This document shows positions 2,074 to 45,897 of a DNA stretch of 64,000 nucleotides, one piece after another (within the stretch, counting starts at the first letter, position 1; each line of letters opens with the position of its first letter). This stretch comes from an uncultured Eubacteriales bacterium (lineage in GTDB: Bacteria > Bacillota > Clostridia > Christensenellales > Aristaeellaceae). The DNA lies in assembly GCA_902781945.1 (NCBI GenBank), contig CACZLE010000003.1, forward strand, positions 39,637-103,636. The letters are read 5' to 3'. The notes below the pieces were generated by a model that ran no database searches, was not told the DNA's origin, and saw only the letters and a program-made list of their open reading frames with translations. Made by a program: the position numbers and the translations under genes.

Positions 2074-2111
2074 TCTCCTCCGATCAGAGTTTCAGGGCTA
2101 TATTATATCAT

Positions 2112-2165
2112 AAAACAAAATAAAAGAAAATACGTCTCCGCCGGGAAATGGCCCCGGGGAGACGT
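2112..2165 (-). terminator. rho-independent terminator downstream of the UPF0210 gene
   Basis: Hairpin ACGTCTCCGCCGGG / CCCGGGGAGACGT (2132-2165), followed on the minus strand by a T-rich tract (2112-2131). Confidence 0.7.
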
Positions 2166-2194
2166 GTTTGCAAATTGTTCATATTGCAGGTTGT

Positions 2195-3826: not shown

Positions 3827-3956
3827 GGTTTTCACGCTCCTTCGATAGAAAATATTATACCTGTTTCCGACCAAATTGCAACCGGGAATGCAGGCTTGTT
3901 TTGTTTATAAACTGTGCTATCATGTTCGGACATCCAACAAAGGAGGATTGTGAACC

Positions 3957-8979: not shown

Positions 8980-9237
8980 TGTCTTGCCCTCCAATGGATC
9001 AAGTTTTATTAACACGCATTATTATACACATGATCCCCCAAAAGTCAAGGGGTATTTTGCAAAAAAGTCAAATAGAATTTTGTATTTATGCACAATGAAT
9101 GTATAACTGCATAACCTGGGGCGATCTGTCCAAAGGATGGCCGCATATCACATGCGCATGCGTCCCGCCCGTTTTGCCGCTAAAAAAGGAGGCTGTGTCA
9201 GTCACAAGCACAGACATGGAAAAAACATGGCAAACTA

Positions 9238-9266
9238 TTGACAAAAAATACAGTTTCTGATATATA
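9238..9266 (+). promoter_or_regulatory. sigmaA-type promoter for the 9380-13541 ABC operon
   Basis: TTGACA (9238-9243), 17-nt spacer, TATATA (9261-9266). A leader of about 110 nt with two GC hairpins follows. Confidence 0.5.
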
Positions 9267-9379
9267 TTGATATGGATTCATAGGCTCCGGCGCCGATGCC
9301 GGAATAAAAATCGTGTCTTGCGCCGCGTTTCCGCGCGGCGGGGCAAATATATCTCATCTTCACAAGGAGGCATTCCTGT

Positions 9380-12433: not shown

Positions 12434-12434
12434 T

Positions 12435-13541
<1,107 letters not shown>

Positions 13542-16212: not shown

Positions 16213-16215
16213 ACC

Positions 16216-17160: not shown

Positions 17161-17175
17161 CAGGAGGTCAGGCAC

Positions 17176-18228: not shown

Positions 18229-18230
18229 TC

Positions 18231-18260
18231 AAAAAAATCCGCCAAATCGGCGGATTTTTT
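18231..18260. terminator. bidirectional rho-independent terminator between convergent genes
   Basis: AAAAAAATCCGCC-AAATC-GGCGGATTTTTT: a perfect stem flanked by A and T runs. Confidence 0.85.
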
Positions 18261-18262
18261 GA

Positions 18263-20269: not shown

Positions 20270-20328
20270 ATCGATCACCCTTTCCTGTTCATTATAGAGG
20301 CAAATGTGCCTGGAATCAATATTTCCCG

Positions 20329-20357
20329 TTGATTTTCCGGGCGATATGCGGTATAAT
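20329..20357 (+). promoter_or_regulatory. sigmaA-type promoter of the cobalamin operon
   Basis: TTGATT (20329-20334), 17-nt spacer, TATAAT (20352-20357). Confidence 0.55.
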
Positions 20358-20374
20358 TTTTCCCGTAATTGAAT

Positions 20375-20546
20375 ATGCGGACCAGGTGCCCGGGGGCTAC
20401 GCCCGGGTGAAAAGGGAAGTCCGGTGAAAAACCGGCGCAACAGCCATTACTGTGATCGGTTCCGCGGCGCAAATGCCATTGAGCGTATGCTTGAGAAGGC
20501 GCGCCCGCAGGGGAAAAGCCCCAGCCGTCAGCCAGGAGACCTGCCT
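20375..20546 (+). promoter_or_regulatory. cobalamin (AdoCbl) riboswitch
   Basis: AAAAGGGAAGTCCGGTGAAAAACCGGCGCA core plus an exact B12-box consensus AGCCAGGAGACCTGCC at 20530-20545. Located upstream of btuF-like and cbi genes. Confidence 0.85.
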
Positions 20547-20708
20547 TGTCCGTGATACATGTGGATTTCTTGGGCAAGGGAGAAGGTCCGCAATTTGCAA
20601 GGACGGGCAAAACCGGTCTTGTTTTGAGCGTACGCAGGCCCCATTTTCCCAAATGCGGGCGTTTTCTTTTTTGCTCCGGAGATAAATATCTTTATTGGAG
20701 GTCAAACC

Positions 20709-21806
20709 ATGAAACGCATCGTTGCCATCCTGGCCGCTCTGGTCCTCCTGTGCGGCTGCCTGCCTGCCCTGGCGGAGCTGAACGTCACCGGCTCCATGGA
20801 GCTGGAATACGCCAAGCAGTTCACCGTGGATTATATCGAGGGCGGCTATGCCCTGATCACCAATTCCGACGGCGCGCGCTTCCTCACCATCCCCGAAGGC
20901 GCTGAGATCCCCGCCGATCTGGACGAGGACATCGTGCCCCTGCAATTGCCCCTCAGCAACCTGCTCATTTCCTCCACCCCCACCGTGTCCCTGATCAACG
21001 CCATCGGCGCCCTGGACGCCGTGACCATGACCACCCAGGAATACAGCGGCTGGTATATCGACGAAGTGAAGGCTGCCATGGACGCGGGCAAGCTGAGCTA
21101 CATCGGCAGCTACAAGGAGCCGGATTTTGAGGTGCTCACCGCCAATCCGCCGCCCTTCAGCGTGTTCAGCACCATGCTGGACAGCGTGCCCGACGTGGCC
21201 GAAAAGCTCAAGGAACTGGGCATCCCCTACCTGCGGGACACCAGCACCTATGAGACCCATCCCCTGGGCCGCATGGAGTGGGTGAAGCTCTACGGCCTGC
21301 TGCTGGGCAAGGAAAAAGAAGCCCAGGCTCACTTTGAAAGCCAGAAGGCCCTGGTGGACGGCATCGGCGCGGAAAGCACCGGCAAGACCGTGGCCATGTT
21401 CTACATCACCAGCAAGGGCGACCTGTACACCCGCAAGGCGGGCGACTACATGGTCAAGATGCTGGAGCTGGCCGGCGGCGAATACGCGCTGCCCGATCTC
21501 AAGCCCGAGGAGAGCGGCACCCAGAAGATCGAGGCCGAGGAGTTCTACGCCGGGGCCGGCGACGCCGATTACATCGTGTACATCTGGTCCATGGGCGGCA
21601 AGCCCGAAACCATGGACGCCTTCCTGGAGCGCAGCGAGATCCTCAAGGATTTCAAGGCCGTGAAGGAAGGCAACGTGTGGTTCACCACCCCCGATTACTT
21701 CCAGGTCAACGACACCCTGGGCTCCATGATCCTGGACTTCAACAAAATGCTGACCAACACCGATGAAACCGTGAAGGAATTCACCTACCTGTTCCAGCTG
21801 CAATGA
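20709..21806 (+). CDS. btuF: cobalamin/corrinoid ABC transporter substrate-binding lipoprotein (BtuF/FhuD-type)
   Basis: Lipobox LLCGC, periplasmic-binding-protein type 2 layout. First gene after the B12 riboswitch. Confidence 0.8.
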   Translation: MKRIVAILAALVLLCGCLPALAELNVTGSMELEYAKQFTVDYIEGGYALITNSDGARFLTIPEGAEIPADLDEDIVPLQLPLSNLLISSTPTVSLINAIGALDAVTMTTQEYSGWYIDEVKAAMDAGKLSYIGSYKEPDFEVLTANPPPFSVFSTMLDSVPDVAEKLKELGIPYLRDTSTYETHPLGRMEWVKLYGLLLGKEKEAQAHFESQKALVDGIGAESTGKTVAMFYITSKGDLYTRKAGDYMVKMLELAGGEYALPDLKPEESGTQKIEAEEFYAGAGDADYIVYIWSMGGKPETMDAFLERSEILKDFKAVKEGNVWFTTPDYFQVNDTLGSMILDFNKMLTNTDETVKEFTYLFQLQ

Positions 21807-34800: not shown

Positions 34801-35559
34801 ATGCGCGTTTTCAGCTCTCTGGTCATCGCCTTTTCCACCTATTCCCGGCTGCCCATGCCCCGGGTGGACTGGACCGACGCCAACCGCCGCTACGCCCTGT
34901 GCTTTTTCCCGCTGATCGGCCTGGCGGTGGGGGGCATCCTGGCCCTGTGGCTGTGGGTCTGCGATCTGCTGGCCCTGAACGCCTTTTTGCGCGGGGCTAT
35001 CGGCGCGGCGATCCCGCTGCTGGTCACCGGCGGCATCCACATGGACGGCCTCATGGATACCAGCGACGCCCTGGCCAGCTGGCAGCCCCGGGAAAAGCGG
35101 CTGGAGATCCTCAAGGATCACCACGTGGGGGCCTTTGCGGTCCTCGTCTGCGCGGGGTATCTGCTGGTGATGGCGGGCCTGCTCAGCGAATGCGGTCTGG
35201 GGGACGCCGTCTCCCTGACGGCCTGCTTCCTGCTGTCCCGGGCGGCCAGCGCGGCCCTGTCGGTCAGCTTGAAACAGGCCCGGCCCGGCGGCATGCTGGA
35301 GGGCTTCGCTCGCACGGCGGCGGGCAGGGCGGTGCTGATCTGCGCGGCCCTGTACGGCTTTTGCGGCGTCTTTGCCGTCTGCGCCCGCAGCCCCTGGGGC
35401 CTGCTGATGCCGGCGGCGCTGGGCGCGGTGACGGTCTGGTACATCCATATGGCCCGTAAAAACTTCGGCGGCGTCACCGGCGATCTGGCGGGCTGGTTTT
35501 TGCAGATGGCGGAATTATGCATGATCGCCGCCGTGGTATTGGGGGGAAAGCTGCTGTGA
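34801..35559 (+). CDS. cobS: adenosylcobinamide-GDP ribazoletransferase (cobalamin synthase)
   Basis: 252-aa polytopic membrane protein with FSTYSRLPMP, GGIHMDGLMDTSDA and GGVTGD motifs. Confidence 0.9.
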   Translation: MRVFSSLVIAFSTYSRLPMPRVDWTDANRRYALCFFPLIGLAVGGILALWLWVCDLLALNAFLRGAIGAAIPLLVTGGIHMDGLMDTSDALASWQPREKRLEILKDHHVGAFAVLVCAGYLLVMAGLLSECGLGDAVSLTACFLLSRAASAALSVSLKQARPGGMLEGFARTAAGRAVLICAALYGFCGVFAVCARSPWGLLMPAALGAVTVWYIHMARKNFGGVTGDLAGWFLQMAELCMIAAVVLGGKLL

Positions 35560-35873
35560 AGCTGTATATCGGCGGGGCCTGGCAGGGCCAGGAGGAGCTG
35601 GCGCGAAGGGAATGCCCGGAGGGCGAGATCATCCCGGATTTTCATGAAATCATGCGGCGGCATACCGAGGACGCCCGGGAGTTTGCCGAGGCCTTTTATC
35701 GGGCGCATCCGCAGGCCGTGGTGACGGCCAACGAGGTGGGCGGCGGCATCGTGCCCATGGACCCGGAGGAGCGCGCCTGGCGGGAGGCCTGCGGGCGGGC
35801 GCTGTGCGTGCTGGCCGGGCATGCCGATCAGGTGACCCGGGTGGTCTGCGGCCTCGGGGTGCGGCTCAAATGA
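35556..35873 (+). CDS. CobU-like protein lacking a functional P-loop (C-terminal CobU homology only)
   Basis: GTG at 35556 overlaps the cobS TGA (GTGA), with GGGGGGAAAG upstream. 105 aa ending ANEVGGGIVPMDPEERAWREACGRALCVLAGHADQVTRVVCGLGVRLK, colinear with the CobU C-terminal third. The N-terminus reads GGAWQGQEE instead of GxxxxGKS. Confidence 0.6.
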   Translation: MKLYIGGAWQGQEELARRECPEGEIIPDFHEIMRRHTEDAREFAEAFYRAHPQAVVTANEVGGGIVPMDPEERAWREACGRALCVLAGHADQVTRVVCGLGVRLK

Positions 35874-36421
35874 GCGTGCTGCTGATCCGCCATGGCCAGA
35901 CGGCGGGCAATCTGGCCCATCGCTATATCGGCGGCCGTACCGACGAACCCCTGTGCGAAGAAGGGATCGAGGCCTTGAAAAACGGCCATTATCCGCCGGT
36001 TCGCCGGGTGTTGGTCAGTCCCATGCTGCGCTGCCGTCAGACCGCGGCCATCCTCTATCCGGAGATCGTGCCGGAGGTCGTGCCGGATTTGCGTGAATGT
36101 GATTTTGGCCGCTTCGAGGGCAAGAGCTGCGCCGAGCTGAACGGCGATCCCGCCTATCAGGCGTGGATCGACAGCGGCGGCGCGCTGCCCTTTCCGGAGG
36201 GCGAGGCCCGGGAGGACTTCATCGCCCGCTGTGTCCGGGCCTTTGAGGGCGTTTCTGATCTGTGGCGGGAGGATACCGCCCTCATCGCCCACGGCGGCAC
36301 GCTCATGGCCATTATGCAGGCCTATGCGCTGCCCCGGCGGGATTATTTTGATTATCAGGTCAAAAACGGACAAGGATTCCGGCTTTATTCGGACGGAAGC
36401 TGGGAAAATTTGTATTTTTAA
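35870..36421 (+). CDS. cobC: alpha-ribazole phosphatase (histidine phosphatase family)
   Basis: MSVLLIRHGQTAGN (RHG catalytic motif) and a later AHGGT. ATGA overlap with the preceding gene. Last gene of the cob operon. Confidence 0.85.
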   Translation: MSVLLIRHGQTAGNLAHRYIGGRTDEPLCEEGIEALKNGHYPPVRRVLVSPMLRCRQTAAILYPEIVPEVVPDLRECDFGRFEGKSCAELNGDPAYQAWIDSGGALPFPEGEAREDFIARCVRAFEGVSDLWREDTALIAHGGTLMAIMQAYALPRRDYFDYQVKNGQGFRLYSDGSWENLYF

Positions 36422-36431
36422 CGTTTGTATA

Positions 36432-36460
36432 TTGACTTTCCATGCGCACGCTCCTATAAT
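36432..36460 (+). promoter_or_regulatory. near-consensus sigmaA promoter
   Basis: TTGACT (36432-36437), 17-nt spacer, TATAAT (36455-36460). Confidence 0.65.
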
Positions 36461-36483
36461 GATGCCGAACAGAATATGAAAGA

Positions 36484-36590
36484 GTTCTTCAGGGCAGGGT
36501 GCAAGTCCCTACCGGCGGTAAAGCCCGCGAGCCGAAAGGTTGATCCGGTGAGATTCCGGGGCCGACAGTATAGTCTGGATGGAAGAAGAT
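36484..36590 (+). promoter_or_regulatory. FMN riboswitch (RFN element) aptamer
   Basis: GTTCTTCAGGGCAGGGTGCAAGTCCCTACCGGCGGTAAAGCCCGCGAGCC...GGTGAGATTCCGGGGCCGACAGTATAGTCTGGATGGAAGAAG reproduces the conserved RFN core strings. The P1 helix is TTCTTC/GAAGAA. Confidence 0.9.
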
Positions 36591-36612
36591 GCTTCTTTGC
36601 CATGGTGTTTCA

Positions 36613-36645
36613 CCTCCTGAAAAGCTCTTTTCAGGAGGTTTTTTC
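36613..36645 (+). terminator. riboswitch expression-platform terminator that also sequesters the SD
   Basis: 12-bp stem CCTCCTGAAAAG / CTTTTCAGGAGG followed by TTTTTT. The 3' arm contains AGGAGG (36633-36638), the SD for the TTG start at 36646. Confidence 0.85.
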
Positions 36646-37500
36646 TTGCGCCGGACATTGAAGCCCTACTTGTATTTGTTGCCCATGCTGGTCTTTGCCG
36701 TGGGCTTTGTCTATTATCCCTTTGCCAAAACCGTGGCCCAGAGCGTGTCCATCGTCAATTTCCGGGGCGAGATCACGGGCTTCGCGGGGCTGGAGAACTT
36801 CCGCTATCTCTTTTCCCGGCGGGAATTCTCCATCGCCATGCAAAATACGCTCAAGCTCATGTTCATCAACGTGCCCGTCACCCTGGCCCTCACCTGCCTC
36901 CTGGCCTGGTTCAGCAACAGCCGCACCTTTTTAAGTCCCGTTTATGAAACTCTGCTGGCCCTGCCCATGACGGTATCCATGCCCGTCATCACCCTGATCT
37001 TCAAGGTGCTGCTCAACCCCTCCGTGGGCTTCGTCAATTACGCGCTGAACCTGGATGTGGGCTGGTACACGGACCGGCACACCGCCATGGCGGGCATTCT
37101 GATGCTGACGGTGTGGATGGGCATTGGCTTCAATTACGTGCTGATCCTGAACGCTTTCCGGGGCATCCCCGAGGACCTGATCGGCTGCGCCCGGCTGGAT
37201 GGCGCGGGGCCCCTGCGGATGCTGTTTTCCATTCAGCTGCCGCTGATCTCGCCCACCCTGCTCTATGTGGTGTGCACCAACATGATCCAGGCTATGATGA
37301 CCAGCGGCCCGGTGATGATATTGACCCAGGGCGGGCCCAGCCGCTCCACCACCACCCTGATCTATCTCATGTACACGGCGGGCTACCGCTCGGCCAATTA
37401 CAGCCTGGCGGCCTGCGTCAGCCTGGTGGCCTTCGCCCTGACCTTCGGGTTCGCGGTGATGCTGTTCGTGCTGGAGGGAAGGCGGGTGCATTATCAATGA
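36646..37500 (+). CDS. CUT1-family ABC permease (UgpA/MalF-like)
   Basis: TTG start 7 nt after AGGAGG. 284 aa beginning (M)RRTLKPYLYLLPMLVF. EAA loop CARLDGAGPLRMLFSIQLP. The ATG at 36589 offered by the ORF track lies inside the riboswitch. Confidence 0.85.
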   Translation: MRRTLKPYLYLLPMLVFAVGFVYYPFAKTVAQSVSIVNFRGEITGFAGLENFRYLFSRREFSIAMQNTLKLMFINVPVTLALTCLLAWFSNSRTFLSPVYETLLALPMTVSMPVITLIFKVLLNPSVGFVNYALNLDVGWYTDRHTAMAGILMLTVWMGIGFNYVLILNAFRGIPEDLIGCARLDGAGPLRMLFSIQLPLISPTLLYVVCTNMIQAMMTSGPVMILTQGGPSRSTTTLIYLMYTAGYRSANYSLAACVSLVAFALTFGFAVMLFVLEGRRVHYQ

Positions 37501-38309
37501 AGAAAACCGTCAAAGGGATTTTCGGCCTGCTGATCGGCTGCCTGCTCATGTTCCCGGTGTTCTACGGCCTGATGGGGGCCTTCAAGACCCCGGCGGAGTT
37601 CATCGGATGGCCGCCCACGGTGCTGCCCCGCAGCTTTGCGAATCTCGATAATTTCCGCGCCGTGTTCACCCAGGCCCCCATGCTGCGCTATCTCCTCAAT
37701 TCCATGATCACCGCCTGCCTTACCTCCGTGGTGCGGCTGGCCATGGCTTTGCTGGCGGCCTACGCCTTCGCCTTCTTTGAATTCAAGGGACAAAAGGTGT
37801 TGTTCTTCCTTTTATTGGGCACCATGATGCTGCCGGCGGACACCCTGCTGATCACCAACTATCAGACCGTGTCCCGGCTGGGGCTACTGGATACCTATCT
37901 GGGCATCTGCGTCGTTTCCTTCGTGGGGGCCACCCAGATGTTCATGCTGCGCCAGCATTTTCTCACCTCGCCCACCGCCGTGCGGGAGGCCGCCCAGCTG
38001 GACGGCTGCGGGGATATGCGCTTCATCCTGTCCATCCTGGCCCCCATGAGCTGGCCCACGCTGGTGATCCTGTTCATGCAGAGCTTCGTGGCCCAGTGGA
38101 ACACCTATCTGTGGCCCCTGATGGTCACCAACACCACCCTCATGCGCACGGTGCAGGTGGGCATCACCATGCTGACCACCATCGAGGGCACCAATTATGA
38201 AACCATCCTGGCGGGATCCGCCGTGGCCATGGTACCGGCCATCGTGCTGTTTGTGGCCCTGCGCCGCAGCATGAACCGCGCCATCGGCGGCGGAGCCATG
38301 GTGGGCTGA
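37497..38309 (+). CDS. CUT1-family ABC permease (UgpE/MalG-like)
   Basis: ATGA overlap with the previous gene. 270 aa. EAA loop EAAQLDGCGDMRFILSILAP. Confidence 0.9.
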   Translation: MKKTVKGIFGLLIGCLLMFPVFYGLMGAFKTPAEFIGWPPTVLPRSFANLDNFRAVFTQAPMLRYLLNSMITACLTSVVRLAMALLAAYAFAFFEFKGQKVLFFLLLGTMMLPADTLLITNYQTVSRLGLLDTYLGICVVSFVGATQMFMLRQHFLTSPTAVREAAQLDGCGDMRFILSILAPMSWPTLVILFMQSFVAQWNTYLWPLMVTNTTLMRTVQVGITMLTTIEGTNYETILAGSAVAMVPAIVLFVALRRSMNRAIGGGAMVG

Positions 38310-38341
38310 ACCTGATATTCTTTTATAAGGAGGAATATATT

Positions 38342-39634
38342 ATGAAGAAACTGCTTTCCCTGCTGCTGGCTTTGGCGCTTTTCATGGGCTTGACGGCCTG
38401 CGCCCAGGCGGAAACCACCCGGATCGTCCTGTGGCACTCCATGTCCGAGGAGGCGGGGGCGCTGATGGACAAATACGTGCGGGAATTCAACGATACCGTG
38501 GGCAAGGAGCAGGGCATCCAGGTGGAGGCCGTGTTCCAGGGCACCTATGCCGAGGCCGTTACCAAGATGAACGGCATGCTGATGAACGGCCAATTGGACG
38601 CCCTGCCCGACGTGATGCAGCTGGACGCCACGGGCAAGGTCTCCTTTGCCGCGGCGGAGAACGCCTACACCGTGGACGCGGCCCTGGCTGAGCATCCCGA
38701 GGCCGATCTTTCCGGCATCCTGGCCCCGGCCCTGACCAACTGGCAGCTGTCCGGCGCGCAGCTGGGCCTGCCCTTCGCCACCTCCACCACTGTGACCTAT
38801 TACAATAAGACCGCCCTGGAGGCCGCTGGCTTTGCCGCCCCCGAGACCCTGACGGATATCGGAAAGATGGCCGCGCTGGCCGCGGACGGCGTGACCGTCT
38901 ACGCCTGCGTGCCCAACACCCCCACCCTGGCCAACTGGCTGGGCCAGCTGGGCAGCGACCTGGTGGACAACCACAACGGCACCGAGGGCACGGCCACCGC
39001 TCTGGACTGCGTTGAGAACGGCGCCCTGGCGGAGTTCCTGACCGCCTGGAAGGACCTGTACGCCACCGGCGCGCTGGCCAACGCCAACGCCTCCACAGAT
39101 GAATTCGTGGCGGGCCGCCAGCTGATCATGACCAGCTCCTCCTCCAGTATCGCCTCCCTGCTGGGCCGCATCGGCGAGGCTTTTGAGCTGGGTGTCAGCG
39201 GCTATCCCCGGGTCAATGAAAACGCCGCCGCCGGAGCCACCGTGTCCGGCAGCTGCCTGGTGATGTTTGATCACGGCGAGGCCCGCCGCGCCGCCGCCTG
39301 GGCCCTGACGGGCTATTTGACCAGCGCCGACGTGCAGGCCGATTTTGCCCGGGGCACCGGCTATCTGCCCGCCAACGCCGCCGCCGCGGAAAGCGAAGCC
39401 TGGCAGGCGCTGATCGCGGAATATCCCCAGTATCAGGTGGGCCTGGAGCAGCTGATGGCCACCCCCGACACCATGCGCAGCGTCACCGTGGGCCCCTCCG
39501 CCGATTTCTACTACGCCATCATGAACGATATATCCGACATGCTGGACAGCGATCTTTCCGTGGAGGAAACCGTGGAGATCCTGGGGGATGACCTGAACGG
39601 CATGCTGGAGCAGTATCTGCGGGCCAATCCCTGA
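38342..39634 (+). CDS. ABC substrate-binding lipoprotein, family 1 (UgpB-like)
   Basis: Lipobox LTAC in MKKLLSLLLALALFMGLTACAQ, then IVLWHSMSEEAG...VFQGTYAEA, typical of UgpB-type SBPs. AAGGAGG upstream. Confidence 0.9.
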   Translation: MKKLLSLLLALALFMGLTACAQAETTRIVLWHSMSEEAGALMDKYVREFNDTVGKEQGIQVEAVFQGTYAEAVTKMNGMLMNGQLDALPDVMQLDATGKVSFAAAENAYTVDAALAEHPEADLSGILAPALTNWQLSGAQLGLPFATSTTVTYYNKTALEAAGFAAPETLTDIGKMAALAADGVTVYACVPNTPTLANWLGQLGSDLVDNHNGTEGTATALDCVENGALAEFLTAWKDLYATGALANANASTDEFVAGRQLIMTSSSSSIASLLGRIGEAFELGVSGYPRVNENAAAGATVSGSCLVMFDHGEARRAAAWALTGYLTSADVQADFARGTGYLPANAAAAESEAWQALIAEYPQYQVGLEQLMATPDTMRSVTVGPSADFYYAIMNDISDMLDSDLSVEETVEILGDDLNGMLEQYLRANP

Positions 39635-39642
39635 GGTGGAGC

Positions 39643-40539
39643 ATGGAAATATCCACCTCCACCAATATCTGCGCGTTCCAGCGGGGCCGTGAACGGCTGC
39701 CGGTGGAATTCAGCATCGAAACCTGCGCGAAGGCCGGATACCGGGTGCTGGACATCAATTTCTGCATGGCCATGAACCCGGAATCCCCCCTGCGGGGGCC
39801 GGACTGGGAGGATTACGTCCGCTCCATCGGCGATCTGGCCGCGCAATACGGCATCCGCTTCAATCAGTCCCATCTGCCCTATTATGACGTGTGGGCCAAG
39901 CGGGATACCCCGGATGCGAGGATCATGGAGGAGCTGATCCGCCGCTCCATCCGGGGCACGGCCCTGCTGGGGGCCCGCTGGGCGGTGACCCACCCCTTCA
40001 CCGTGTGGGACGCGGGCCAGGATATGGCCCTGTCCAAGCGGGCGAATCTGCAATATTATGCGCCCCATGTGGAATTGGCCCGGCAATGCGGCGTGGGCAT
40101 CGCCCTGGAAAACGACTTTGAATACCAGGGCAGCCTGCGGCGGGTCTATTGCGCCAGCGTCTATGAATTGATGGACCTGTGCGACGCCTTCGGCGATCCG
40201 GAGCATGTGGGGATCTGCTATGATTTCGGCCACGCCAACCTGACCGGCGGCAGCCATCGGCAAAATCTGAACGCCATCGGAAAGCGCCTGAAAGCCGTCC
40301 ACGTGCAGGACAATCACGGCCAGAGCGACGAGCATCTGCTGCCCTTCTTCGGCTCCATCGACTGGGAGCAGGCCATGCTGGGCCTGGCGGAAAGCGACTA
40401 TACGGGGGATTTGACCTTCGAGATCCAGGAATACGGCAGATACCTGCCCCGGGACATGAAGCACCTGGCCGTGGAACAGTCCCTGGCCGTGGGGGAAAGG
40501 CTGCTGACCCTTTGGAAAAAGGGCGCGGAGTCAATGTAA
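39643..40539 (+). CDS. xylose isomerase-like TIM-barrel protein (sugar phosphate isomerase/epimerase, AP_endonuc_2 family)
   Basis: 298 aa with IALEND, FGHANL and HVQDNHGQSDEHLLPFFGSIDW metal-site patterns of this superfamily. It starts 8 nt after the SBP stop. Confidence 0.8.
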   Translation: MEISTSTNICAFQRGRERLPVEFSIETCAKAGYRVLDINFCMAMNPESPLRGPDWEDYVRSIGDLAAQYGIRFNQSHLPYYDVWAKRDTPDARIMEELIRRSIRGTALLGARWAVTHPFTVWDAGQDMALSKRANLQYYAPHVELARQCGVGIALENDFEYQGSLRRVYCASVYELMDLCDAFGDPEHVGICYDFGHANLTGGSHRQNLNAIGKRLKAVHVQDNHGQSDEHLLPFFGSIDWEQAMLGLAESDYTGDLTFEIQEYGRYLPRDMKHLAVEQSLAVGERLLTLWKKGAESM

Positions 40540-40740
40540 GAATATGAAGGCGTTTTCTGCTTTGCTTTTTTGTGATTTTCTTACTTTTTTTGAAAAAAAG
40601 GGTGGACATACAAAAAGTAATGTGGTATATTTATGGCTGAGTATTTCTGCTTTTTGCGTGCTTTTTTGTACGCTTGGACGGAGAAACTCTTGCGTTAGCA
40701 CGGAATGCATGACGGACTGAAACGGCAAAGGAAGCGTTCA

Positions 40741-41769
40741 ATGAGCAGATTTCGCGGCCATCATTCCCCACCGACCAGACGCCGGACGACAGTGAAGTTC
40801 GCCATCGCGCTGGCCGCGGCCCTCATCCTGGTGGTGGGCGGCTATTTGGTGGGTGAGTGGCTGGAGAACCGTTCCTACCAAGAGGAACGTCAGCAGATGA
40901 GCGAGAATTTCGGCCTGCTGCCCACCATGGAATACCAGGGGCAGACCTACATGCGCAGGCCGGAAGTCACCACCATGCTGCTGATGGGCGTGGATCAGCA
41001 CATGGACGAGGAGCCCACGGGCAGCCGTCACGGCGGACGCGCGGACTTCCTGCTGCTGATGGCCCTGGATCACAAAAACCAGAAGGTCTATCAGCTGCAA
41101 ATCGACCGCGACACCTTTACCGAGGTCCCCGTTGTGGGTGTGCTGGGCAACGAGGTCGGCACCCGCGCCATGCAGATCTGCCTGGCCTACAACTACGGCA
41201 ACAACAACGAGGAACGCTGCCGCCACACCGTGCAGGCCGTGCAGATGCTGCTCAACGACGAGCCCATCGAACTGGCCCTGGCGGTCAAGCTGGACGGTAT
41301 CGCGGTGCTCAACCAGGCCTTGGGCGGCATCCGGGTGACCATCCCGGAGGATATGACCGTTGTGGATCCCGCCTTTACGGCAGGGGCCACCCTGACCCTG
41401 ACGGATGCCCAGACCGAAAAGCTGGTGCGCGCCCGCATGACGGTGGGGGACGGGCTGAACGTCTCCCGTATGCGCAGGCAGCGGACCTTCCTGGAGGCTG
41501 CCACCCGGCAGCTGCGCAGCATGCTGGCGTCGGATTCCGACTTCGCCGGCAGGCTCTTTGACTCGCTGGAAGCGATTTCCAGCTACACCAATGTGACCCG
41601 CGGACGGCTGATCAACGAGGCCAACCGCGCGTACAACTATGATATTCAACCCGTCGATACATTGGCGGCTGAATATAAGATCGGCGCGCAGGAGCTGATG
41701 GAATGCCATGTGGACAAGGATGCAGTTACGGCATGGCTGATCAAAACGCTCTACGAGCCGAAAAATTGA
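40741..41769 (+). CDS. LCP family (LytR-CpsA-Psr) glycopolymer transferase
   Basis: N-terminal TM helix, then TMLLMGVDQ...GGRADFLLLMALD...QIDRDT core motifs. Confidence 0.85.
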   Translation: MSRFRGHHSPPTRRRTTVKFAIALAAALILVVGGYLVGEWLENRSYQEERQQMSENFGLLPTMEYQGQTYMRRPEVTTMLLMGVDQHMDEEPTGSRHGGRADFLLLMALDHKNQKVYQLQIDRDTFTEVPVVGVLGNEVGTRAMQICLAYNYGNNNEERCRHTVQAVQMLLNDEPIELALAVKLDGIAVLNQALGGIRVTIPEDMTVVDPAFTAGATLTLTDAQTEKLVRARMTVGDGLNVSRMRRQRTFLEAATRQLRSMLASDSDFAGRLFDSLEAISSYTNVTRGRLINEANRAYNYDIQPVDTLAAEYKIGAQELMECHVDKDAVTAWLIKTLYEPKN

Positions 41770-41783
41770 AGGGAGATAAAACA

Positions 41784-42416
41784 ATGAAAAAGACGATTGC
41801 GTTACTGTTGGTGGCCGTGATGGCGCTGTCTCTGACCTCTGCCTTCGCGAGCAGCCCTAAGAACTATGAGGAGCCCGTCACGGTGGTCACCCCCACTCCC
41901 GCTCCCGCTGCTCCCGCCGCCCCCGCTGCTCCTGCTGAAGAAGTAGAGGAAGAAGTCGAAGCCGAAAACCTGGTCGTTGCCGTCGTGGAGAGCGAAGCGG
42001 TGGACGAGGCTGTCGAAGAGATCAAAAAGATGGTCGCCGAAGAAAAGCCCGTCATTGAGTACTTCCCTGAAGAAACTCAGGAAGAAGTGAAGGCTGTTCT
42101 GCCCGAGACCGTGAAGGCTGAGGATCTGGAACTGAATGAGTTCGTCGGCATGGCCGTGGACAACTTTGAACAGGTTGTTGAAGAAGCGGACGAAGTTCGC
42201 GTTATCATCGCCTTCACCACCAAGTATGATCCTGAGCAGGAAGTGTTCCCCCTGATCGGTCTGGTGGACGAGGCCGGCAATGTGACCTGGGTTCTGATTG
42301 AAGCTGAAGTGCAGGAAGACGGCTCTCTGATGCTGATCATCCCCACCGACGTGCTGGAGAAGATGGGCAACGCCGCTTCCGTTCAGGTTGCTATTCTGAG
42401 CACTCCTCAGAAGTAA
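41784..42416 (+). CDS. secreted acidic protein, unknown function
   Basis: Signal peptide MKKTIALLLVAVMALSLTSAFA, a PTPAPAAPAAPAAPA linker and a Glu/Val-rich body. GGGAG sits 9 nt upstream of the ATG. Confidence 0.7.
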   Translation: MKKTIALLLVAVMALSLTSAFASSPKNYEEPVTVVTPTPAPAAPAAPAAPAEEVEEEVEAENLVVAVVESEAVDEAVEEIKKMVAEEKPVIEYFPEETQEEVKAVLPETVKAEDLELNEFVGMAVDNFEQVVEEADEVRVIIAFTTKYDPEQEVFPLIGLVDEAGNVTWVLIEAEVQEDGSLMLIIPTDVLEKMGNAASVQVAILSTPQK

Positions 42417-42430
42417 TCGATAAGTAATTG

Positions 42431-42466
42431 CGTACCCGATGGCCATATTAGCGGCCATCGGGTACG
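42431..42466 (+). terminator. strong hairpin after the acidic-protein gene (terminator candidate, no clear U-tract)
   Basis: 14-bp perfect stem CGTACCCGATGGCC / GGCCATCGGGTACG. Confidence 0.5.
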
Positions 42467-42565
42467 TATGATACGTTCTACAGACCAAATGGAGGCGGTC
42501 AGCATCCGACCGCGTTGTTTGGTTTCATGGGCTAAAAAACACAGTGGATAGAGCGGAGGATACCC

Positions 42566-43366
42566 ATGGCATCACCGGAAACAAAGGCATTACTGGAAAA
42601 TGAAAACCGCAAGCAGGGCATGCAGTCGGATACGATGGAAATCGATCTGGTTGAGTTGATGTACCGTTTGCTGGAAAAGGCGAAATATATCATTCTGGCA
42701 GCGCTGCTGGGAGCGATCATTTCCGGTGCATATACGGTTTTCCGGATCACGCCTTTGTACACCGCGACCTCCAAGCTGTATGTGGTCAACAGCGCCAACT
42801 CGGTCATCGACCTGTCCGCGCTGAACATGGGCACGCAGCTGGCGTCGGACTACAAGGAAGTCTTTTCCAACTGGCATGTGCATGAGCGCGTGCTGCAAAA
42901 GCTGGATCTTCCCTATAGTTATAAGCAGCTGAACGATATGGTTTCCGTCTCCAATTCCGAGTCCCAGCGTATCCTGCACATCAAGGTGACCTCTCCTTCG
43001 CCGGAGGAGGCCAAGCTGCTGGCGGATACCTACGCGCAGGTGGCACAGGAATTCATCGCAGAGACCATGAGCACCCAGCGCCCCAACATCTTCCAGGAAG
43101 CGCTGCGGCCCACGGCTCCTTCTTCGCCCAACAAGACCCGCAACATCATCCTGGGCTTCATGCTGGGAGCCATCCTGGCCGCCGGCATCGTGGTGGTGCA
43201 GTTCATCGTGGACGACAGGATCCACAGCGAAGAGGACATTACCAAATACCTGGATCTGCCCGTGCTTGGCATGATGCCCAGCCAGCGGCAGGAAGTAAAG
43301 GGTAATAAAAAGAAGCAGCCGCACAAGAAGGACAGCAATACCAAGCGGGAGGAGACTGAAAAATGA
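42566..43366 (+). CDS. Wzz/CpsC-type polysaccharide chain-length determinant (BY-kinase transmembrane modulator)
   Basis: 266 aa with EIDLVELMYRLLEKAKYIIL plus TM, a second TM near the C-terminus and a lysine-rich tail. GGAGGA upstream. Confidence 0.85.
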   Translation: MASPETKALLENENRKQGMQSDTMEIDLVELMYRLLEKAKYIILAALLGAIISGAYTVFRITPLYTATSKLYVVNSANSVIDLSALNMGTQLASDYKEVFSNWHVHERVLQKLDLPYSYKQLNDMVSVSNSESQRILHIKVTSPSPEEAKLLADTYAQVAQEFIAETMSTQRPNIFQEALRPTAPSSPNKTRNIILGFMLGAILAAGIVVVQFIVDDRIHSEEDITKYLDLPVLGMMPSQRQEVKGNKKKQPHKKDSNTKREETEK

Positions 43367-44079
43367 AACTGGCACAATTCAGACGCCTGAACCCGCTGGA
43401 TTACTCCGGCACGGAAGCCGTGAACACCATTTGTTCCAACTTGTCCTTCTCCGGACGGCATGTGCGGAAGATCGTCATTACCAGCTGCAATTCCGGCGAC
43501 GGCAAGAGCTATATGAGCGTGCAGATCGCCTATAACCTGGCCCAGCGCGGCAAGCGCGTGCTGCTGATCGACGCGGACTTGCGCAAATCCAATCTGGTCA
43601 GCCGCTATGGCATCACCACCGACGGCGAAATGACCGGCCTGGTGCACTATCTGGCAGGCTACAACGGACTGGAGGACGTGATCTACCGCACCAATATGGA
43701 GAACTTCCATCTGCTGCCGGTGGGCCGCGATATCGCCAATCCCATCCCGCTGCTGGACGCGCCCGCGTTCTCCGATCTGCTCAATTTCCTGGCGGAAAAG
43801 TACGACATGGTATTGTTGGACGCTCCGCCGGTGGGTCTGGTCATCGACGCGGCGGAAATCGCCCGCTGCTGCGACGGCGTGCTGCTGGTGGTCAAACACA
43901 GCCACACCCATCGCAAGGAAATGCAGGCGGCCAAGCAGCAGCTGGAACAGACCGGCTGCCCCATCCTGGGCTGCGTGCTCAACGACGTGTCCTTCGACAG
44001 TATCAGCGCGAAAAAATATTACAACAAGTCCTATTATTCCCATTACGGAGATTATTACCGTAAGAATAATAAGGACTGA
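43363..44079 (+). CDS. CpsD/CapB-type tyrosine-protein kinase (BY-kinase)
   Basis: Walker A SGDGKS, A' LLIDADLRKS, Walker B VLLDAPPV, and a C-terminal tyrosine cluster YYNKSYYSHYGDYYRK. Confidence 0.9.
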   Translation: MKLAQFRRLNPLDYSGTEAVNTICSNLSFSGRHVRKIVITSCNSGDGKSYMSVQIAYNLAQRGKRVLLIDADLRKSNLVSRYGITTDGEMTGLVHYLAGYNGLEDVIYRTNMENFHLLPVGRDIANPIPLLDAPAFSDLLNFLAEKYDMVLLDAPPVGLVIDAAEIARCCDGVLLVVKHSHTHRKEMQAAKQQLEQTGCPILGCVLNDVSFDSISAKKYYNKSYYSHYGDYYRKNNKD

Positions 44080-44094
44080 TCGCAGGGAACCGAA

Positions 44095-44808
44095 ATGCAG
44101 TTTGCCGATTTGCACCACCATGTGATCTACGGGGTAGACGATGGTCCGCAGACCTTCGAGGATGCGCAGGCCATGCTCCGCAGAGCCCATGAGAATGGGG
44201 TCACGGATATTGCCGCCACCTCCCATGCTACGCCAGGCCGTCATCGTTTTCCCATGGATACCTACCTGGAGCATCTGCGCAAAGAGCAGGCGTGGGCGGA
44301 CGAACAGGGCCTGGGGATCCGGCTGCATACCGGCTGTGAGATTCTGTATACGGACGAGACGGTTCGTCTGCTGCAGGACAACGCGATTCCCACCATTGAC
44401 GGCACGCGGCTGATCCTGGTGGAATTCCTGCCCGCAAACGATTTCAACCATATCCAGAATGCCGTGCGCAGGCTGGGCAACGCGGGTTACACCGTGATCG
44501 TGGCCCATGCGGAGCGGTATGACGGAACGCGCAAGGTGGAGGATCTGCGCGCCTTGCGGGAAGATCTTGGCGCATATATTCAAATCAATGCCCATACCTT
44601 CATTTCTCCCGGTGGTTTCTTCGCGAAGCGCTGGCTGAGAAAGGTGATGGAGAATGGATGCTGCGACCTGGCCGCCACGGACGCCCATAACACGTCCAGC
44701 CGCTCCTGCCAGATGAAAAAGTGTCATGAGACGATCATCAAGGAATGGGGACAGGACACCGCGAACAGCTTGTGCATCGAAACGCCCCGTCAATTACTGG
44801 GCATATAA
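44095..44808 (+). CDS. CpsB/YwqE-type PHP-family tyrosine-protein phosphatase
   Basis: DLHHHVIYGVDDGP and TSHATPG motifs. 237 aa. Confidence 0.85.
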   Translation: MQFADLHHHVIYGVDDGPQTFEDAQAMLRRAHENGVTDIAATSHATPGRHRFPMDTYLEHLRKEQAWADEQGLGIRLHTGCEILYTDETVRLLQDNAIPTIDGTRLILVEFLPANDFNHIQNAVRRLGNAGYTVIVAHAERYDGTRKVEDLRALREDLGAYIQINAHTFISPGGFFAKRWLRKVMENGCCDLAATDAHNTSSRSCQMKKCHETIIKEWGQDTANSLCIETPRQLLGI

Positions 44809-45009
44809 GAAACAGCTTCATATATGGCCTCGACAAAGTGATGCTTTGGCGGGCTTTTTTTATGCGTAGATCGAAAAGCAACTGCGGCTGTACGCGGGAA
44901 CAGAGACAATTTGGAATATCTTTGGTTGCGGAAACGAACAAAATCATATATAATATAGTTTGGTATGGTTTAGTTTTTGTCTGATAAGATACAAGAGAGG
45001 TGGAAATCG

Positions 45010-45897
45010 ATGAAGGGAATCATTCTGGCGGGCGGCGCGGGAACGCGGCTGTATCCATTGACCATGGTGACCTCCAAGCAATTGCTGCCGATTTACGATA
45101 AACCGATGGTCTATTATCCCTTGTCCACACTGATGCTGGCGGGGATCAAGGATATCCTGGTGATCAGCACGCCGGAGGATACCCCCCGCTTTGAGCATCT
45201 GCTGGGCGATGGAAGCCAGTTTGGCATTTCCCTGTCCTACAAGGTGCAGCCCAGCCCGGACGGCCTGGCCCAGGCGTTCATCCTGGGGGAAGAGTTTATA
45301 GGTGACGACGCCTGCGCCATGGTGCTGGGCGACAATATCTTTTATGGCAACGGCTTTGGCAGGATCCTGCGTTCCACTGTGGAGAATGCGGAGAAGAATG
45401 GCCGGGGCACGGTGTTCGGCTATTATGTGACCGATCCGGAACGCTTTGGCGTGGTGGATTTTGATGCAAACGGCAAGGCTGTCAGCATCGAGGAAAAGCC
45501 GGCCCATCCCAAGAGCAATTATGCGGTGACGGGCCTGTATTTCTATCCGGCGGGGGTCAGCGCCCGGGCAAAGCAGGTCAAGCCTTCCGCCCGGGGAGAA
45601 CTGGAAATCACCACGCTGAACGCCATGTATTTGCAGGACGGCCTGCTGGACGTGCAGCTGCTGGGCCGCGGCTTTGCCTGGCTGGACACCGGCACCATGG
45701 ACAGCCTGGTGGAGGCGGCGGATTTTGTGCGCATGGTGGAAAAGCGACAGGGCATCAAGATTTCCGCCCCGGAGGAAATCGCCTATAAATATGGCTGGAT
45801 CAGCCATGAGCAGCTGCTGGAATCGGCGGAAAAATATGGCAAGAGCCCCTATGGCGCGCATCTGCGCGCGGTAGCGGAAGGCAAGGTGCAATACTGA
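45010..45897 (+). CDS. rfbA: glucose-1-phosphate thymidylyltransferase
   Basis: [36 protein letters not shown] is a canonical RmlA N-terminus. Confidence 0.95.

Follow-up and report, generated by a model that had tools for sequence, protein, structure and literature searches.

The Ugp system of E. coli and M. tuberculosis (UgpBAEC-UgpQ) includes a cytoplasmic TIM-barrel phosphodiesterase, UgpQ, which splits the ester once it has been imported. The operon described here lies in a 64,000-nucleotide stretch of DNA, the whole of which we call the window. It shares with the Ugp system a UgpB-like substrate-binding protein (SBP) and UgpA/E-like permeases, and a UgpC-type ATPase is present in homologous loci. 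Likewise, both combine transporter genes with a cytoplasmic TIM-barrel (phospho)esterase, an esterase role that is predicted for the window protein. In contrast, the three transport proteins of the window stay far below the NCBIfam equivalog cutoffs of their best matches: permease 1 to UgpA (140.9 bits vs 335), permease 2 to UgpE (140.9 bits vs 297) and the SBP to UgpB (92.4 bits vs 411). The ligand-loop motif reads MQLDATGK in the window SBP and FEVGT in UgpB, the esterase families are the AP_endonuc_2 superfamily and GDPD, respectively, and the window operon is predicted to be regulated by FMN, whereas Ugp is regulated by phosphate.

The leader RNA and the operon behind it

A sigma-70-type promoter, TTGACT-17 nt-TATAAT, is present on the forward strand at 36432..36460 and matches the consensus at 11 of 12 positions. 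No other promoter-like site occurs in 36200-36800 (mean in shuffles, 0.4), and the closest relative, L001, keeps it as TTGACA...TATAAT. Downstream lies a P1-closed FMN riboswitch aptamer (RF00050; 36481..36594, forward strand), the single FMN riboswitch of the window, which scores 113.9 bits (E 8.8e-26) against a gathering score of 66.2, with a match spanning model positions 1-138 of 138. With R1, a model of our own, the score is 136.4 bits. FMN-type variants of altered specificity have their phosphate-contacting Gs replaced (PMC6298564); the window aptamer, unlike these, agrees with the Rfam consensus at the conserved positions and retains the conserved G and A.

The expression platform (36612..36645, forward strand) is an intrinsic terminator with a 12-bp stem (36612-36639), a 4-nt loop and T6. 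The hairpin has a folding energy of -17.6 kcal/mol, and the alternative antiterminator pairing, a duplex of the P1 5' strand with the terminator 5' arm, has -12.5 kcal/mol. The Shine-Dalgarno (SD) motif AGGAGG (36633..36638, forward strand) sits in the terminator 3' arm, 7 nt ahead of the TTG start at 36646; it is the sole ribosome-binding site for the first gene and is sequestered in the stem. Many related loci also show this layout, with CAGGAGG in the stem, and in 28 of 34 FMN-positive loci the aptamer is succeeded by a comparable terminator hairpin with a T-run, the stem sequences differing among them. Promoter, aptamer, terminator with U6, and SD with TTG start had all been proposed in a first-pass annotation of this DNA. 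Every element it listed was found at, or a few bases from, its assigned position, with the aptamer scoring far above the RF00050 threshold.

Four genes follow on the forward strand. Permease 1 (36646..37500; UgpA/MalF-like, CUT1 type; Pfam BPD_transp_1, E 1.7e-15) is kept in all related loci, and its TTG start yields an N-terminus like that of its homologues (RRTLKPYLYLLP vs KKRNLKPLLFLLP). Its stop overlaps the start of permease 2 (37497..38309; UgpE/MalG-like; BPD_transp_1) in an ATGA. After a gap of 32 nt comes the lipoprotein SBP (38342..39634; Pfam SBP_bac_8, E 2.9e-34; lipobox LTAC), which has a UgpB-like fold and forms its own family. A TIM-barrel metalloenzyme of the AP_endonuc_2 superfamily is encoded 8 nt further on (39643..40539; PF01261, E 2.9e-25). 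The close packing previously noted for these genes, with the overlap at 37497 and gaps of 8-32 nt, thus holds, as does the lack of an ATPase gene within the four-gene operon. The only MalK-like ATPase of the window (12402-13541) sits behind a fused permease of another ABC system. In homologous loci a UgpC-type ATPase adjoins the permeases (451 bits vs cutoff 432), making clear the class of the missing ATPase.

With moderate confidence, we read the operon as an FMN-repressed CUT1/Ugp-like importer of a flavin, likeliest FAD and/or FMN, whose cargo would be trimmed by a cytoplasmic metallo-phosphoesterase. We infer regulation in vivo, the ATPase partner, the cargo and the enzyme reaction as follows. 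Transcription would start at the TTGACT/TATAAT promoter. When FMN is ample, the bound aptamer would lock P1, and the 12-bp hairpin and U-tract would form, ending transcription before the first gene and leaving the sole SD buried in any full-length RNA. When FMN is scarce, the P1 5' strand would pair with the terminator 5' arm, allowing read-through and exposing the SD. The lipoprotein SBP would take its ligand extracellularly, the two permeases would translocate it, and a UgpC/MsmK-type ATPase encoded elsewhere would power import. The endonuclease IV/MJ1311-like enzyme may then hydrolyse a phosphoester or pyrophosphate of the cargo (FAD, for instance, would yield FMN and AMP) and so refill the FMN pool sensed by the riboswitch. 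Direct bacterial uptake of FMN and FAD is described for Listeria RibU (PMC9060500).

Recurrence of the pairing and riboswitch-free sister operons

The comparison covered 70 homologous loci whose upstream DNA could be read, each species being represented by one genome. The first-pass annotation had raised the question of whether RF00050 recurs at orthologous operons, and it does: an FMN riboswitch is present at 33 of the 70 loci, a count that includes L051 and L053, and additionally on the metagenome contigs L084 and L085. In 31 species-level genomes it precedes the same set of permease-permease-SBP genes. Most of the FMN-positive loci belong to rumen or gut Christensenellales-like Clostridia, they occupy at least three distinct regions of the SBP tree, and the curated RF00050 model gave 100-126 bits on 11 sampled loci. 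The arrangement varies, the riboswitch being placed between permE and the SBP gene in L051, 1.4 kb upstream in L053, and convergent or antisense in L086, where the convergent riboswitch would turn the operon on at high FMN. The pairing of riboswitch and transporter is not due to chance, and its occurrence in over 30 uncultured species from gut and rumen probably marks a family of flavin uptake systems not described before.

The remaining 37 loci carry no riboswitch. Many of them are six-gene operons in which a class I (DhnA-type) aldolase and a Zn alcohol dehydrogenase sit directly 3' of the TIM gene, and such operons occur in Spirochaetes, Lachnospiraceae and Oscillospiraceae. No kinase was found in the aldolase-containing operons. 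Riboswitch-positive and riboswitch-negative SBPs have 74 positions conserved at 95% or more in both groups and differ consistently at one position only, so the two groups probably share a ligand class. The presence of aldolase and dehydrogenase in riboswitch-free operons shows that the family is not purely vitamin-scavenging. In Alkalibaculum (L088) a 52%-identical aldolase and dehydrogenases follow a mannose-type PTS, indicating that the two enzymes are not specific to flavins. For a trace cofactor, a catabolic operon of its own would be unusual. The earlier description of the operon as a new flavin import module stands as regards its novel architecture and recurring riboswitch; about half of the homologous loci are riboswitch-free, and the flavin cargo is predicted.

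The sister operons suit a different view, in which the transporter imports a non-flavin organophosphate (for instance a phosphodiester of ribitol or glycerol, derived from teichoic acids or lipids) and one clade captured an FMN riboswitch unrelated to flavin supply. The phosphoesterase would free a polyol phosphate, which the dehydrogenase and aldolase of the sister operons would degrade to DHAP. All components are Ugp-like, the kinase-free six-gene operons appear catabolic and recur without the riboswitch in the three groups named, the enzyme pair serves a PTS in L088, and the SBP pocket residues are common to both clades. However, an FMN OFF riboswitch marks genes needed at low FMN, which no non-flavin nutrient accounts for, and a single accidental capture is hard to reconcile with an association that recurs in 33 species, across at least three regions of the SBP tree, and in four geometries. 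Furthermore, all experimentally tested transporters under a canonical FMN riboswitch are flavin transporters (PMC4418817). We thus regard a non-flavin cargo as unlikely.

Predicted cargo and the TIM-barrel enzyme

The SBP, whose AlphaFold model has a mean pLDDT of 89.3, has as its nearest PDB structures the dinucleotide-binding 7c0v, UgpB with G1P (9lff), and the UgpB proteins of E. coli and M. tuberculosis. The ligands of these nearest solved relatives are phosphomonoesters and phosphodiesters (G1P/G3P, glycerophosphocholine and a dinucleotide), in agreement with the suggestion of the first-pass annotation that a UgpB-type pocket would suit a ribityl-phosphate ligand. T. thermophilus U3GBP (PDB 7c0f, 7c0v) is the top Foldseek match and the second-best sequence match, at an identity of ~22-23%, and shows that this SBP sub-cluster can accommodate a dinucleotide-sized phosphodiester. 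Its mutant-defined ligand residues are matched only in part in the window SBP; F79 and N81, for example, align with D95 and T97.

The TIM-barrel protein has no signal peptide. It was initially called xylose-isomerase-like, and while the TIM barrel is borne out, its profile is closest to MJ1311 (PDB 3wqo; E 2.6e-20) and endonuclease IV (6e-7), ahead of D-tagatose 3-epimerase (5e-3). Nine residues, H77, H117, E156, D194, H197, H220, D229, H231 and E260, do not vary among 30 homologues and correspond to all nine metal ligands of the trinuclear centre of endonuclease IV; the protein shows no sign of DNA binding. Foldseek with the structural model (mean pLDDT 89.9) also places MJ1311 first (TM 0.73-0.81), though identity is only ~21% and MJ1311 itself has no assigned function; sugar 3-epimerases come right after, a ranking that does not separate phosphoesterases from epimerases. 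The nine ligands and the nearness of the profile to MJ1311 and endonuclease IV point to phosphoester hydrolysis, and a phosphoesterase is more likely than a sugar isomerase. FAD contains a pyrophosphate, whereas endonuclease IV and CbiR, a small-molecule phosphodiesterase of the same superfamily that acts on a cofactor nucleotide loop, cleave phosphodiesters.

The first-pass annotation counted the TIM barrel in the module, but its gene is absent from 18 of 33 FMN-positive related loci; the enzyme is accessory to the transporter, and the cargo would be useful without it. In two of these riboswitch-positive loci, L015 and L017, a cytoplasmic phosphodiesterase/nucleotide pyrophosphatase (PF01663) is encoded in its place behind the SBP gene. 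That this position can hold either of two unrelated phosphoesterases suggests a cargo with a phosphoester.

That the TIM gene is missing from over half of the FMN-positive loci also suits import of an unphosphorylated flavin (riboflavin itself or a precursor such as 6,7-dimethyl-8-ribityllumazine), with a TIM barrel that is a sugar-type isomerase or epimerase or is unrelated to phosphate chemistry. The logic of the riboswitch fits this equally well, riboflavin is the cargo of most known FMN-riboswitch-controlled importers (PMC4418817), and the E-D-H-E tetrad of the epimerases, which Foldseek puts just behind MJ1311, lies entirely among the conserved residues. Yet the other five ligands of endonuclease IV are invariant as well, and by profile the epimerases rank behind endonuclease IV. 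Moreover, the closest solved SBP relatives all bind organophosphates, a nucleotide pyrophosphatase replaces the TIM gene at two loci, and the kinase-free aldolase operons indicate that the cargo enters already phosphorylated. An unphosphorylated cargo therefore seems doubtful.

The phosphodiester chemistry of endonuclease IV and CbiR would match a flavin analogue with a true phosphodiester, mainly F420 (deazaflavin-phospholactyl-glutamate), a methanogen cofactor plentiful in the rumen, or else riboflavin 4',5'-cyclic phosphate, and the hosts are gut and rumen anaerobes that share their habitat with methanogens; but the riboswitch senses FMN, which a deazaflavin is unable to refill, no F420-dependent genes occur in the neighbourhoods examined, and this wholly speculative reading is very improbable. 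A CbiR-type unit for cobamide remodelling or alpha-ribazole salvage, tied to the cobS and cobC-like phosphatase genes that end just upstream (34801-36421), is largely refuted and barely credible: CbiR is the best NCBIfam match of the TIM protein and 25% of cbiR homologues adjoin transporter genes, but the score (36.5 bits) is far under the equivalog cutoff of 105, the operon has its own promoter and an FMN rather than a cobalamin riboswitch, and the cob neighbourhood is not kept at related loci.

Known flavin importers and the fin genes

Most known families of flavin importers were first predicted from the position of FMN riboswitches and validated later (PMC4418817). RibU/ECF, RibM/PnuX, ImpX, RibN, RibZ, RibV, RibXY and RfuABCD homologues have, like the window, a canonical RF00050 aptamer and a terminator platform directly upstream of the transporter genes. 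A full-text literature search found no published description of a CUT1/Ugp-like importer under an FMN riboswitch, and the earlier claim that no known flavin importer family is of this type holds for those in PMC4418817. RibXY has COG0600/COG0715 proteins (sulfonate/nitrate/taurine-type) and RfuABCD a Bmp-family SBP with BPD_transp_2 permeases, whereas the window encodes two BPD_transp_1 permeases and an SBP_bac_8 lipoprotein; the remaining families are carriers of the secondary or ECF type. None comes with a phosphoesterase, the role predicted for the TIM barrel here.

The flavin-induced neighbourhood (fin) of Clostridium scindens is proposed to mediate anaerobic cleavage of the riboflavin side chain, in a model where enzymes of the aldolase and alcohol dehydrogenase types free a triose from FMN (PMC13492142). 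Induction at high FMN, as predicted for L086 with its convergent riboswitch, would be a point in common with fin. The fin neighbourhood contains a RibF-like kinase and permeases, while the ABC system and TIM barrel are absent from it; conversely, the window operon lacks the aldolase and dehydrogenase. The six-gene sister operons, in contrast, carry both of the enzyme types named for fin, their aldolase being of class I.

An FMN riboswitch in front of a four-gene ABC importer operon

Flavin supply is a major cross-feeding axis among gut and rumen microbes, and riboflavin auxotrophy is common in Firmicutes. Importer families under a canonical FMN riboswitch have, once tested, turned out to be flavin transporters in every case (PMC4418817). 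The first-pass annotation had read from the sequence a near-consensus promoter, an FMN aptamer closed by a P1 helix, and a 12-bp terminator with six Us whose 3' arm holds the sole Shine-Dalgarno before a TTG start, and our analysis bears out all of these. The sigma-70-type promoter, TTGACT-17-TATAAT (36432-36460, plus strand), matches the consensus at 11 of 12 positions and is the only one in 36200-36800. With the curated Rfam covariance model RF00050 the aptamer (36481-36594, plus strand) reaches 113.9 bits (gathering score 66.2; E 8.8e-26), and the cmscan alignment covers the whole model, positions 1-138 of 138. No second FMN riboswitch is found in the 64-kb window. The alignment agrees with the conserved consensus positions GGGCAGGGUG, ACCGGCGGU, CCGGUGA, GCCGACAGUAUAGUC and GGAUGG. 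The ligand-contacting nucleotides, placed on the crystal numbering by eye, are kept, both the Gs that touch the ribityl chain and its phosphate and the As that pair with the isoalloxazine ring or stack against it. In FMN-riboswitch variants of altered specificity those contacting Gs are replaced by As (PMC6298564); since the G-rich strings contacting the ribityl phosphate are matched here, the window aptamer is not such a variant.

The aptamer is followed by a 12-bp hairpin (stem 36612-36639, plus strand; -17.6 kcal/mol) and a run of TTTTTT. The only Shine-Dalgarno, AGGAGG (36633-36638, plus strand), lies within the 3' arm of this terminator, 7 nt before the TTG at 36646. In an alternative fold, the terminator 5' arm can pair with the 5' strand of P1 (-12.5 kcal/mol), which, going by predicted pairing, is the usual antiterminator design. 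FMN-dependent termination of transcription would gate a high-affinity importer that depends on a substrate-binding protein (SBP), and sequestration of the Shine-Dalgarno would reinforce it. The closest species-level relative, L001 (93% SBP identity), keeps the promoter and aptamer and lacks the P1 3' strand, the terminator, the Shine-Dalgarno and the first permease codons, about 45 nt being deleted or replaced (L001:4186-4310 compared with window 36580-36660). Its leader has either decayed, possibly to constitutive expression, or reflects an assembly error in the MAG.

The four genes are tightly packed on the plus strand, as had been annotated. Permease 1 (permA, 36646-37500, TTG start) and permease 2 (37497-38309), joined by an ATGA overlap, both match Pfam BPD_transp_1. 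They are followed by a lipoprotein SBP (38342-39634; lipobox LTAC; Pfam SBP_bac_8) and a TIM-barrel protein (39643-40539; Pfam AP_endonuc_2, PF01261) that has no signal peptide. Two MalF/MalG-type permeases together with a cluster-D SBP place the transporter in the CUT1/Ugp type. The operon itself contains no ATPase gene, again in line with the annotation. CUT1-class importers commonly share a distant ATPase. Spirochaetes, Flexilinea and others encode an ATPase of UgpC type (451 bits, cutoff 432) ahead of the permeases at their homologous loci, and at three further loci (L081-L083) it is divergent from permA. Judging from these loci, the ATPase of the module is presumably a shared UgpC/MsmK-type protein encoded elsewhere.

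The window holds one MalK-like ATPase (12402-13541; 379 aa, with a MalK OB fold), which follows a fused two-domain BPD_transp_1 permease of 608 aa (the pair spans 10607-13541) and is 40% identical to the UgpC-type ATPases of related loci. It was set aside as a dedicated partner of the module, since it sits behind the fused permease of another ABC system. Upstream, the module is flanked by the end of a cobalamin operon, with cobS (34801-35559, plus strand) and, as the last gene before it, a cobC-like histidine phosphatase (35804-36421, plus strand). These two genes have a cobalamin riboswitch (RF00174, 102.6 bits) some 14 kb ahead of them on their own strand, at 20367-20562. Downstream lies a capsule/exopolysaccharide locus (40705-45897) comprising LytR_cpsA_psr (40705-41769), an acidic Ala/Pro/Glu-rich lipoprotein with no Pfam match (within 41703-42416), Wzz (42566-43366), a tyrosine-kinase-like ATPase (43363-44079), CpsB (44095-44808) and a sugar nucleotidyltransferase (44977-45897). 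One homologous locus, L002, has this LytR/capsule neighbourhood in common with the window, yet lacks the TIM gene.

Recurrence of the riboswitch-importer pairing

We scanned an SBP profile against one genome per species (185,579 species) and recovered 80 loci. A tblastn map of these loci shows the same permease-permease-SBP order wherever the contig reaches far enough. Ten of the 80 were set aside, as they carry too little upstream DNA for a judgement. With our own covariance model, built from 25 aptamers, a strong FMN riboswitch (111-140 bits) was detected at 33 of the 80 loci, that is, 33 of the 70 evaluable ones, so the riboswitch does recur ahead of orthologous operons. The curated RF00050 model confirmed all 11 loci sampled (100-126 bits), and two metagenome contigs, L084 and L085, display the same arrangement. 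A hairpin with a T-run follows the aptamer in 28 of 34 loci, often with CAGGAGG in its 3' arm, while the stem sequences vary. Most carriers are uncultured Clostridia from rumen and gut that bear the label Christensenellales or Christensenellaceae, joined by some Oscillospiraceae-like MAGs. In a neighbour-joining tree of the SBPs, riboswitch-positive loci occupy most of the window's clade; the riboswitch also appears in two further places, at L072 and at L051/L053, interleaved with negative loci. Together, the conservation of the pairing across species indicates that it is not due to chance.

Some loci depart from the common layout. The FMN riboswitch of L051 (1961-2078) is placed between permease 2 and the SBP gene, and that of L053 lies 1.4 kb upstream, beyond an opposite-strand gene. 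After the SBP gene, L051 also carries a T-box leader (3589-3877, 94.8 bits). Two low-scoring hits of the riboswitch model were dismissed as chance matches: L064:12042-12173 (17.5 bits), inside a flavoprotein gene, and L093:1436-1538 (11.5 bits). Directly upstream of the FMN riboswitch and on the same strand, L084 (1320-6378) and L053 (1313-2485) encode a Bmp/PnrA-family lipoprotein, for which we detected no riboswitch of its own. In L084, two BPD_transp_2 permeases and a fused double ATPase go with it, giving a set built like RfuABCD and nucleoside importers, which is a separate neighbour of the module.

Cargo of the importer and function of the TIM-barrel protein

As the predicted signal is FMN scarcity, the imported compound should restore FMN. 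The best NCBIfam matches of the window proteins are UgpA (140.9 bits, cutoff 335), UgpE (140.9, cutoff 297) and UgpB (92.4, cutoff 411), and with all three scores under the cutoffs we rejected true equivalogs of the sn-glycerol-3-phosphate system UgpBAE; by these scores the permeases and SBP are Ugp-like, not Ugp. By sequence and by fold (predicted structure, mean pLDDT 89.3), the nearest solved relatives of the SBP are a dinucleotide-binding SBP of Thermus thermophilus, UgpB with glycerol-1-phosphate, E. coli UgpB, and M. tuberculosis UgpB with glycerophosphocholine. The ligands of these relatives are phosphomonoesters or phosphodiesters in all cases. The SBP keeps the shared motifs PF-x-[ST]-S-T...YYNK and TGY-[LV]-P, whereas the ligand loop, FEVGT in UgpB, reads MQLDATGK here and includes an invariant Lys. 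Comparison of 81 SBPs finds 74 positions with at least 95% conservation both in the riboswitch-positive and in the riboswitch-negative set, and just one position at which the two sets consistently differ; the family as a whole thus probably shares a single class of ligand.

The TIM-barrel protein had been described as xylose-isomerase-like. The barrel stands, but its closest relatives by profile are others: a profile of the family run against the PDB finds MJ1311 (E 2.6e-20), then endonuclease IV (four entries, E 6e-7 to 2e-3), and places D-tagatose 3-epimerase below them (E 5e-3). Residues H77, H117, E156, D194, H197, H220, D229, H231 and E260 fall on the metal-ligand positions of endonuclease IV and MJ1311, and all nine are invariant in 30 homologues with identity down to 54%. 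We take the nine endonuclease IV ligands to be 3 His, Glu, Asp-x-x-His, His, Asp-x-His and Glu on the barrel strands, and MJ1311, going also by our alignments, presumably retains them. The Glu-Asp-His-Glu tetrad of isomerases and epimerases, which holds a single metal in those enzymes and includes their two catalytic Glu residues, is present as a subset of the nine. Foldseek ranks epimerases (TM ~0.7) just behind MJ1311 and gives TM ~0.7 for the entire superfamily without separating its branches, so ligand residues and profile ranking were used to decide between phosphoesterase and epimerase. On these residues, we predict a metal-dependent phosphoesterase that, like CbiR, acts on a small molecule; the operon context argues for such a substrate over AP-site DNA. 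CbiR itself (NF041277), a phosphodiesterase of cobamide remodelling, is the best NCBIfam match, yet was rejected: the score is 36.5 bits against a cutoff of 105, the TIM gene sits in a separate transcription unit behind the FMN riboswitch, and the cob neighbourhood is unconserved at related loci. In L082 the copy of the module has no riboswitch, and some 9 kb from it (15319-20906) a second, longer AP_endonuc_2 protein (329 aa) is encoded, with a histidine phosphatase, an NTP_transf_3 protein, a radical SAM enzyme and a methyltransferase as neighbours. This group has the look of a genuine CbiR or lower-ligand cobamide cluster, to be told apart from the TIM protein of the window.

The TIM gene directly follows the SBP gene in 15 of the 33 riboswitch-positive loci and is missing there in the other 18. 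In L015 (7223-8539) and L017 (7223-8572) it is replaced by a cytoplasmic type I phosphodiesterase/nucleotide pyrophosphatase (PF01663) whose gene overlaps the SBP stop codon, and in L057 two PF01663 copies (1668-3056 and 8407-9681) flank the transporter. That two unrelated phosphoesterases are used in one slot suggests a cargo with a phosphoester or pyrophosphate bond; that both are often absent suggests that it can be used in the form in which it enters. FAD (yielding FMN and AMP) and FMN fit both points. NPP-family enzymes can hydrolyse FAD.

Together, the SBP relatives, the phosphoesterase signature and the pyrophosphatase substitution lead us to favour FAD or FMN over riboflavin as the predicted cargo. 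Listeria offers a bacterial precedent, its RibU taking up FMN and FAD directly (PMC9060500). We regard it as probable that a flavin, in whatever form, is the cargo; the fuller statement, a phosphorylated flavin processed by a hydrolytic TIM enzyme, stands at about even chances. A non-flavin organophosphate is unlikely to be the cargo.

Riboswitch-free relatives and comparison with known systems

Our covariance model found no FMN riboswitch at 37 of the 70 evaluable loci. Eleven of the riboswitch-free loci, searched against all of Rfam, contained no other riboswitch and two tRNAs only. Likewise, an all-against-all blastn of 34 upstream regions revealed no common novel leader motif, the similarity being confined to close relatives. 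Many riboswitch-free loci carry two more genes behind the TIM gene, for a DhnA-type class I aldolase and a Zn alcohol dehydrogenase, with start codons that often overlap the preceding stop (L052, L055, L062, L066, L045, L046, L048, L086, L089, L091 and L093). Lachnospiraceae are among the MAGs that repeat this six-gene operon (L086, L089, L091, L093), and there the aldolase family is tied to the module. No kinase is found among the six genes, so the aldolase substrate is probably imported in phosphorylated form or freed as a phosphate ester by the TIM enzyme.

These sister operons allow two readings of the ligand. In one, the ligand is a flavin nucleotide whose ribityl chain the six-gene operons would cleave, by dehydrogenation at C4' and subsequent aldol cleavage, which would give DHAP and formylmethylflavin. 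Support comes from a Lachnospiraceae MAG (GCA_022791755.1), which carries a complete RF00050 riboswitch (111.5 bits) on the minus strand at L086:10838-11130, also seen in L087, convergent with the 3' end of the permease-permease-SBP-TIM-aldolase-dehydrogenase operon. It has its own promoter (TTGACA-17-TATACT) and its own terminator, and no ORF is found behind it. From this layout, antisense transcription under FMN control may activate the operon when FMN is plentiful: if the antisense strand is read through at low FMN, the operon would be FMN-inducible, which is a catabolic logic. The other reading assumes a polyol-phosphate ester of a more general kind, with FMN control as a clade-specific addition. 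Consistent with this, a mannose-type PTS in Alkalibaculum (L088) is followed by a 52%-identical aldolase and two dehydrogenases, and the antisense arrangement is known from one species, with no further antisense FMN riboswitch in L089-L094. The flavin-induced fin neighbourhood of C. scindens is proposed to use the same enzyme types, aldolase and dehydrogenase (PMC13492142); as the aldolase family also occurs at a mannose-type PTS, the parallel with the sister operons remains an analogy.

A scheme that joins all of these elements is, as a whole, doubtful. In it, the SBPs would bind FAD or FMN, and the MJ1311/endonuclease IV-like TIM enzyme would be a new kind of FAD-cleaving phosphoesterase yielding FMN. 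In Christensenellales-like bacteria the module would serve as an FMN-repressed vitamin scavenger. The sister operons of Spirochaetes, Lachnospiraceae and Oscillospiraceae would instead catabolise FMN, the Zn dehydrogenase oxidising it at C4' and the class I aldolase splitting the product into DHAP and formylmethylflavin, and at least one Lachnospiraceae species would turn the operon on at high FMN through its convergent antisense riboswitch. This would supply the anaerobic route, so far missing, by which formylmethylflavin and hydroxyethylflavin arise as flavin catabolites in the gut. The sister operons are a concrete candidate for anaerobic cleavage of the flavin side chain, and should they form such a pathway, the importance of the finding would be considerably greater.

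The module is a solid, testable lead, and its transporter family is new among the FMN-riboswitch importers described. If the preferred reading of a phosphorylated-flavin importer is correct, it adds a binding-protein-dependent, high-affinity family of flavin importers, spread widely among the uncultured Clostridia of rumen and gut. It may then be the first ABC system dedicated to phosphorylated flavins, and MJ1311-type proteins, so far an orphan branch within the endonuclease IV superfamily, would gain their first functional context. Auxotrophy predictions from metagenomes that are limited to RibU, PnuX and other known families would then overlook the uptake capacity of its carriers. Our search of the literature, which was partial and leaves absence unproven, found no published report of a Ugp-type or ABC sugar-transporter operon under an FMN riboswitch.

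The known flavin importers RibU, RibM/PnuX, ImpX, RfnT, RibN, RibZ, RibV, RibXY and RfuABCD were each rejected as the identity of the transporter, since their substrate component belongs to a different family. This separation was made at the level of domain families. It upholds the annotation's claim that the importer falls outside these families, Pfam giving BPD_transp_1 and SBP_bac_8 only. RfuA is a Bmp-family protein. RibXY is built from COG0600/COG0715 components (PMC4418817). Flavin importers under FMN riboswitches are of a well-known kind, but the transporter family of the module lies outside those described (PMC4418817). Ugp with UgpQ likewise combines an SBP-dependent importer with a cytoplasmic esterase; the module is alike in this, but its predicted esterase belongs to a different superfamily.
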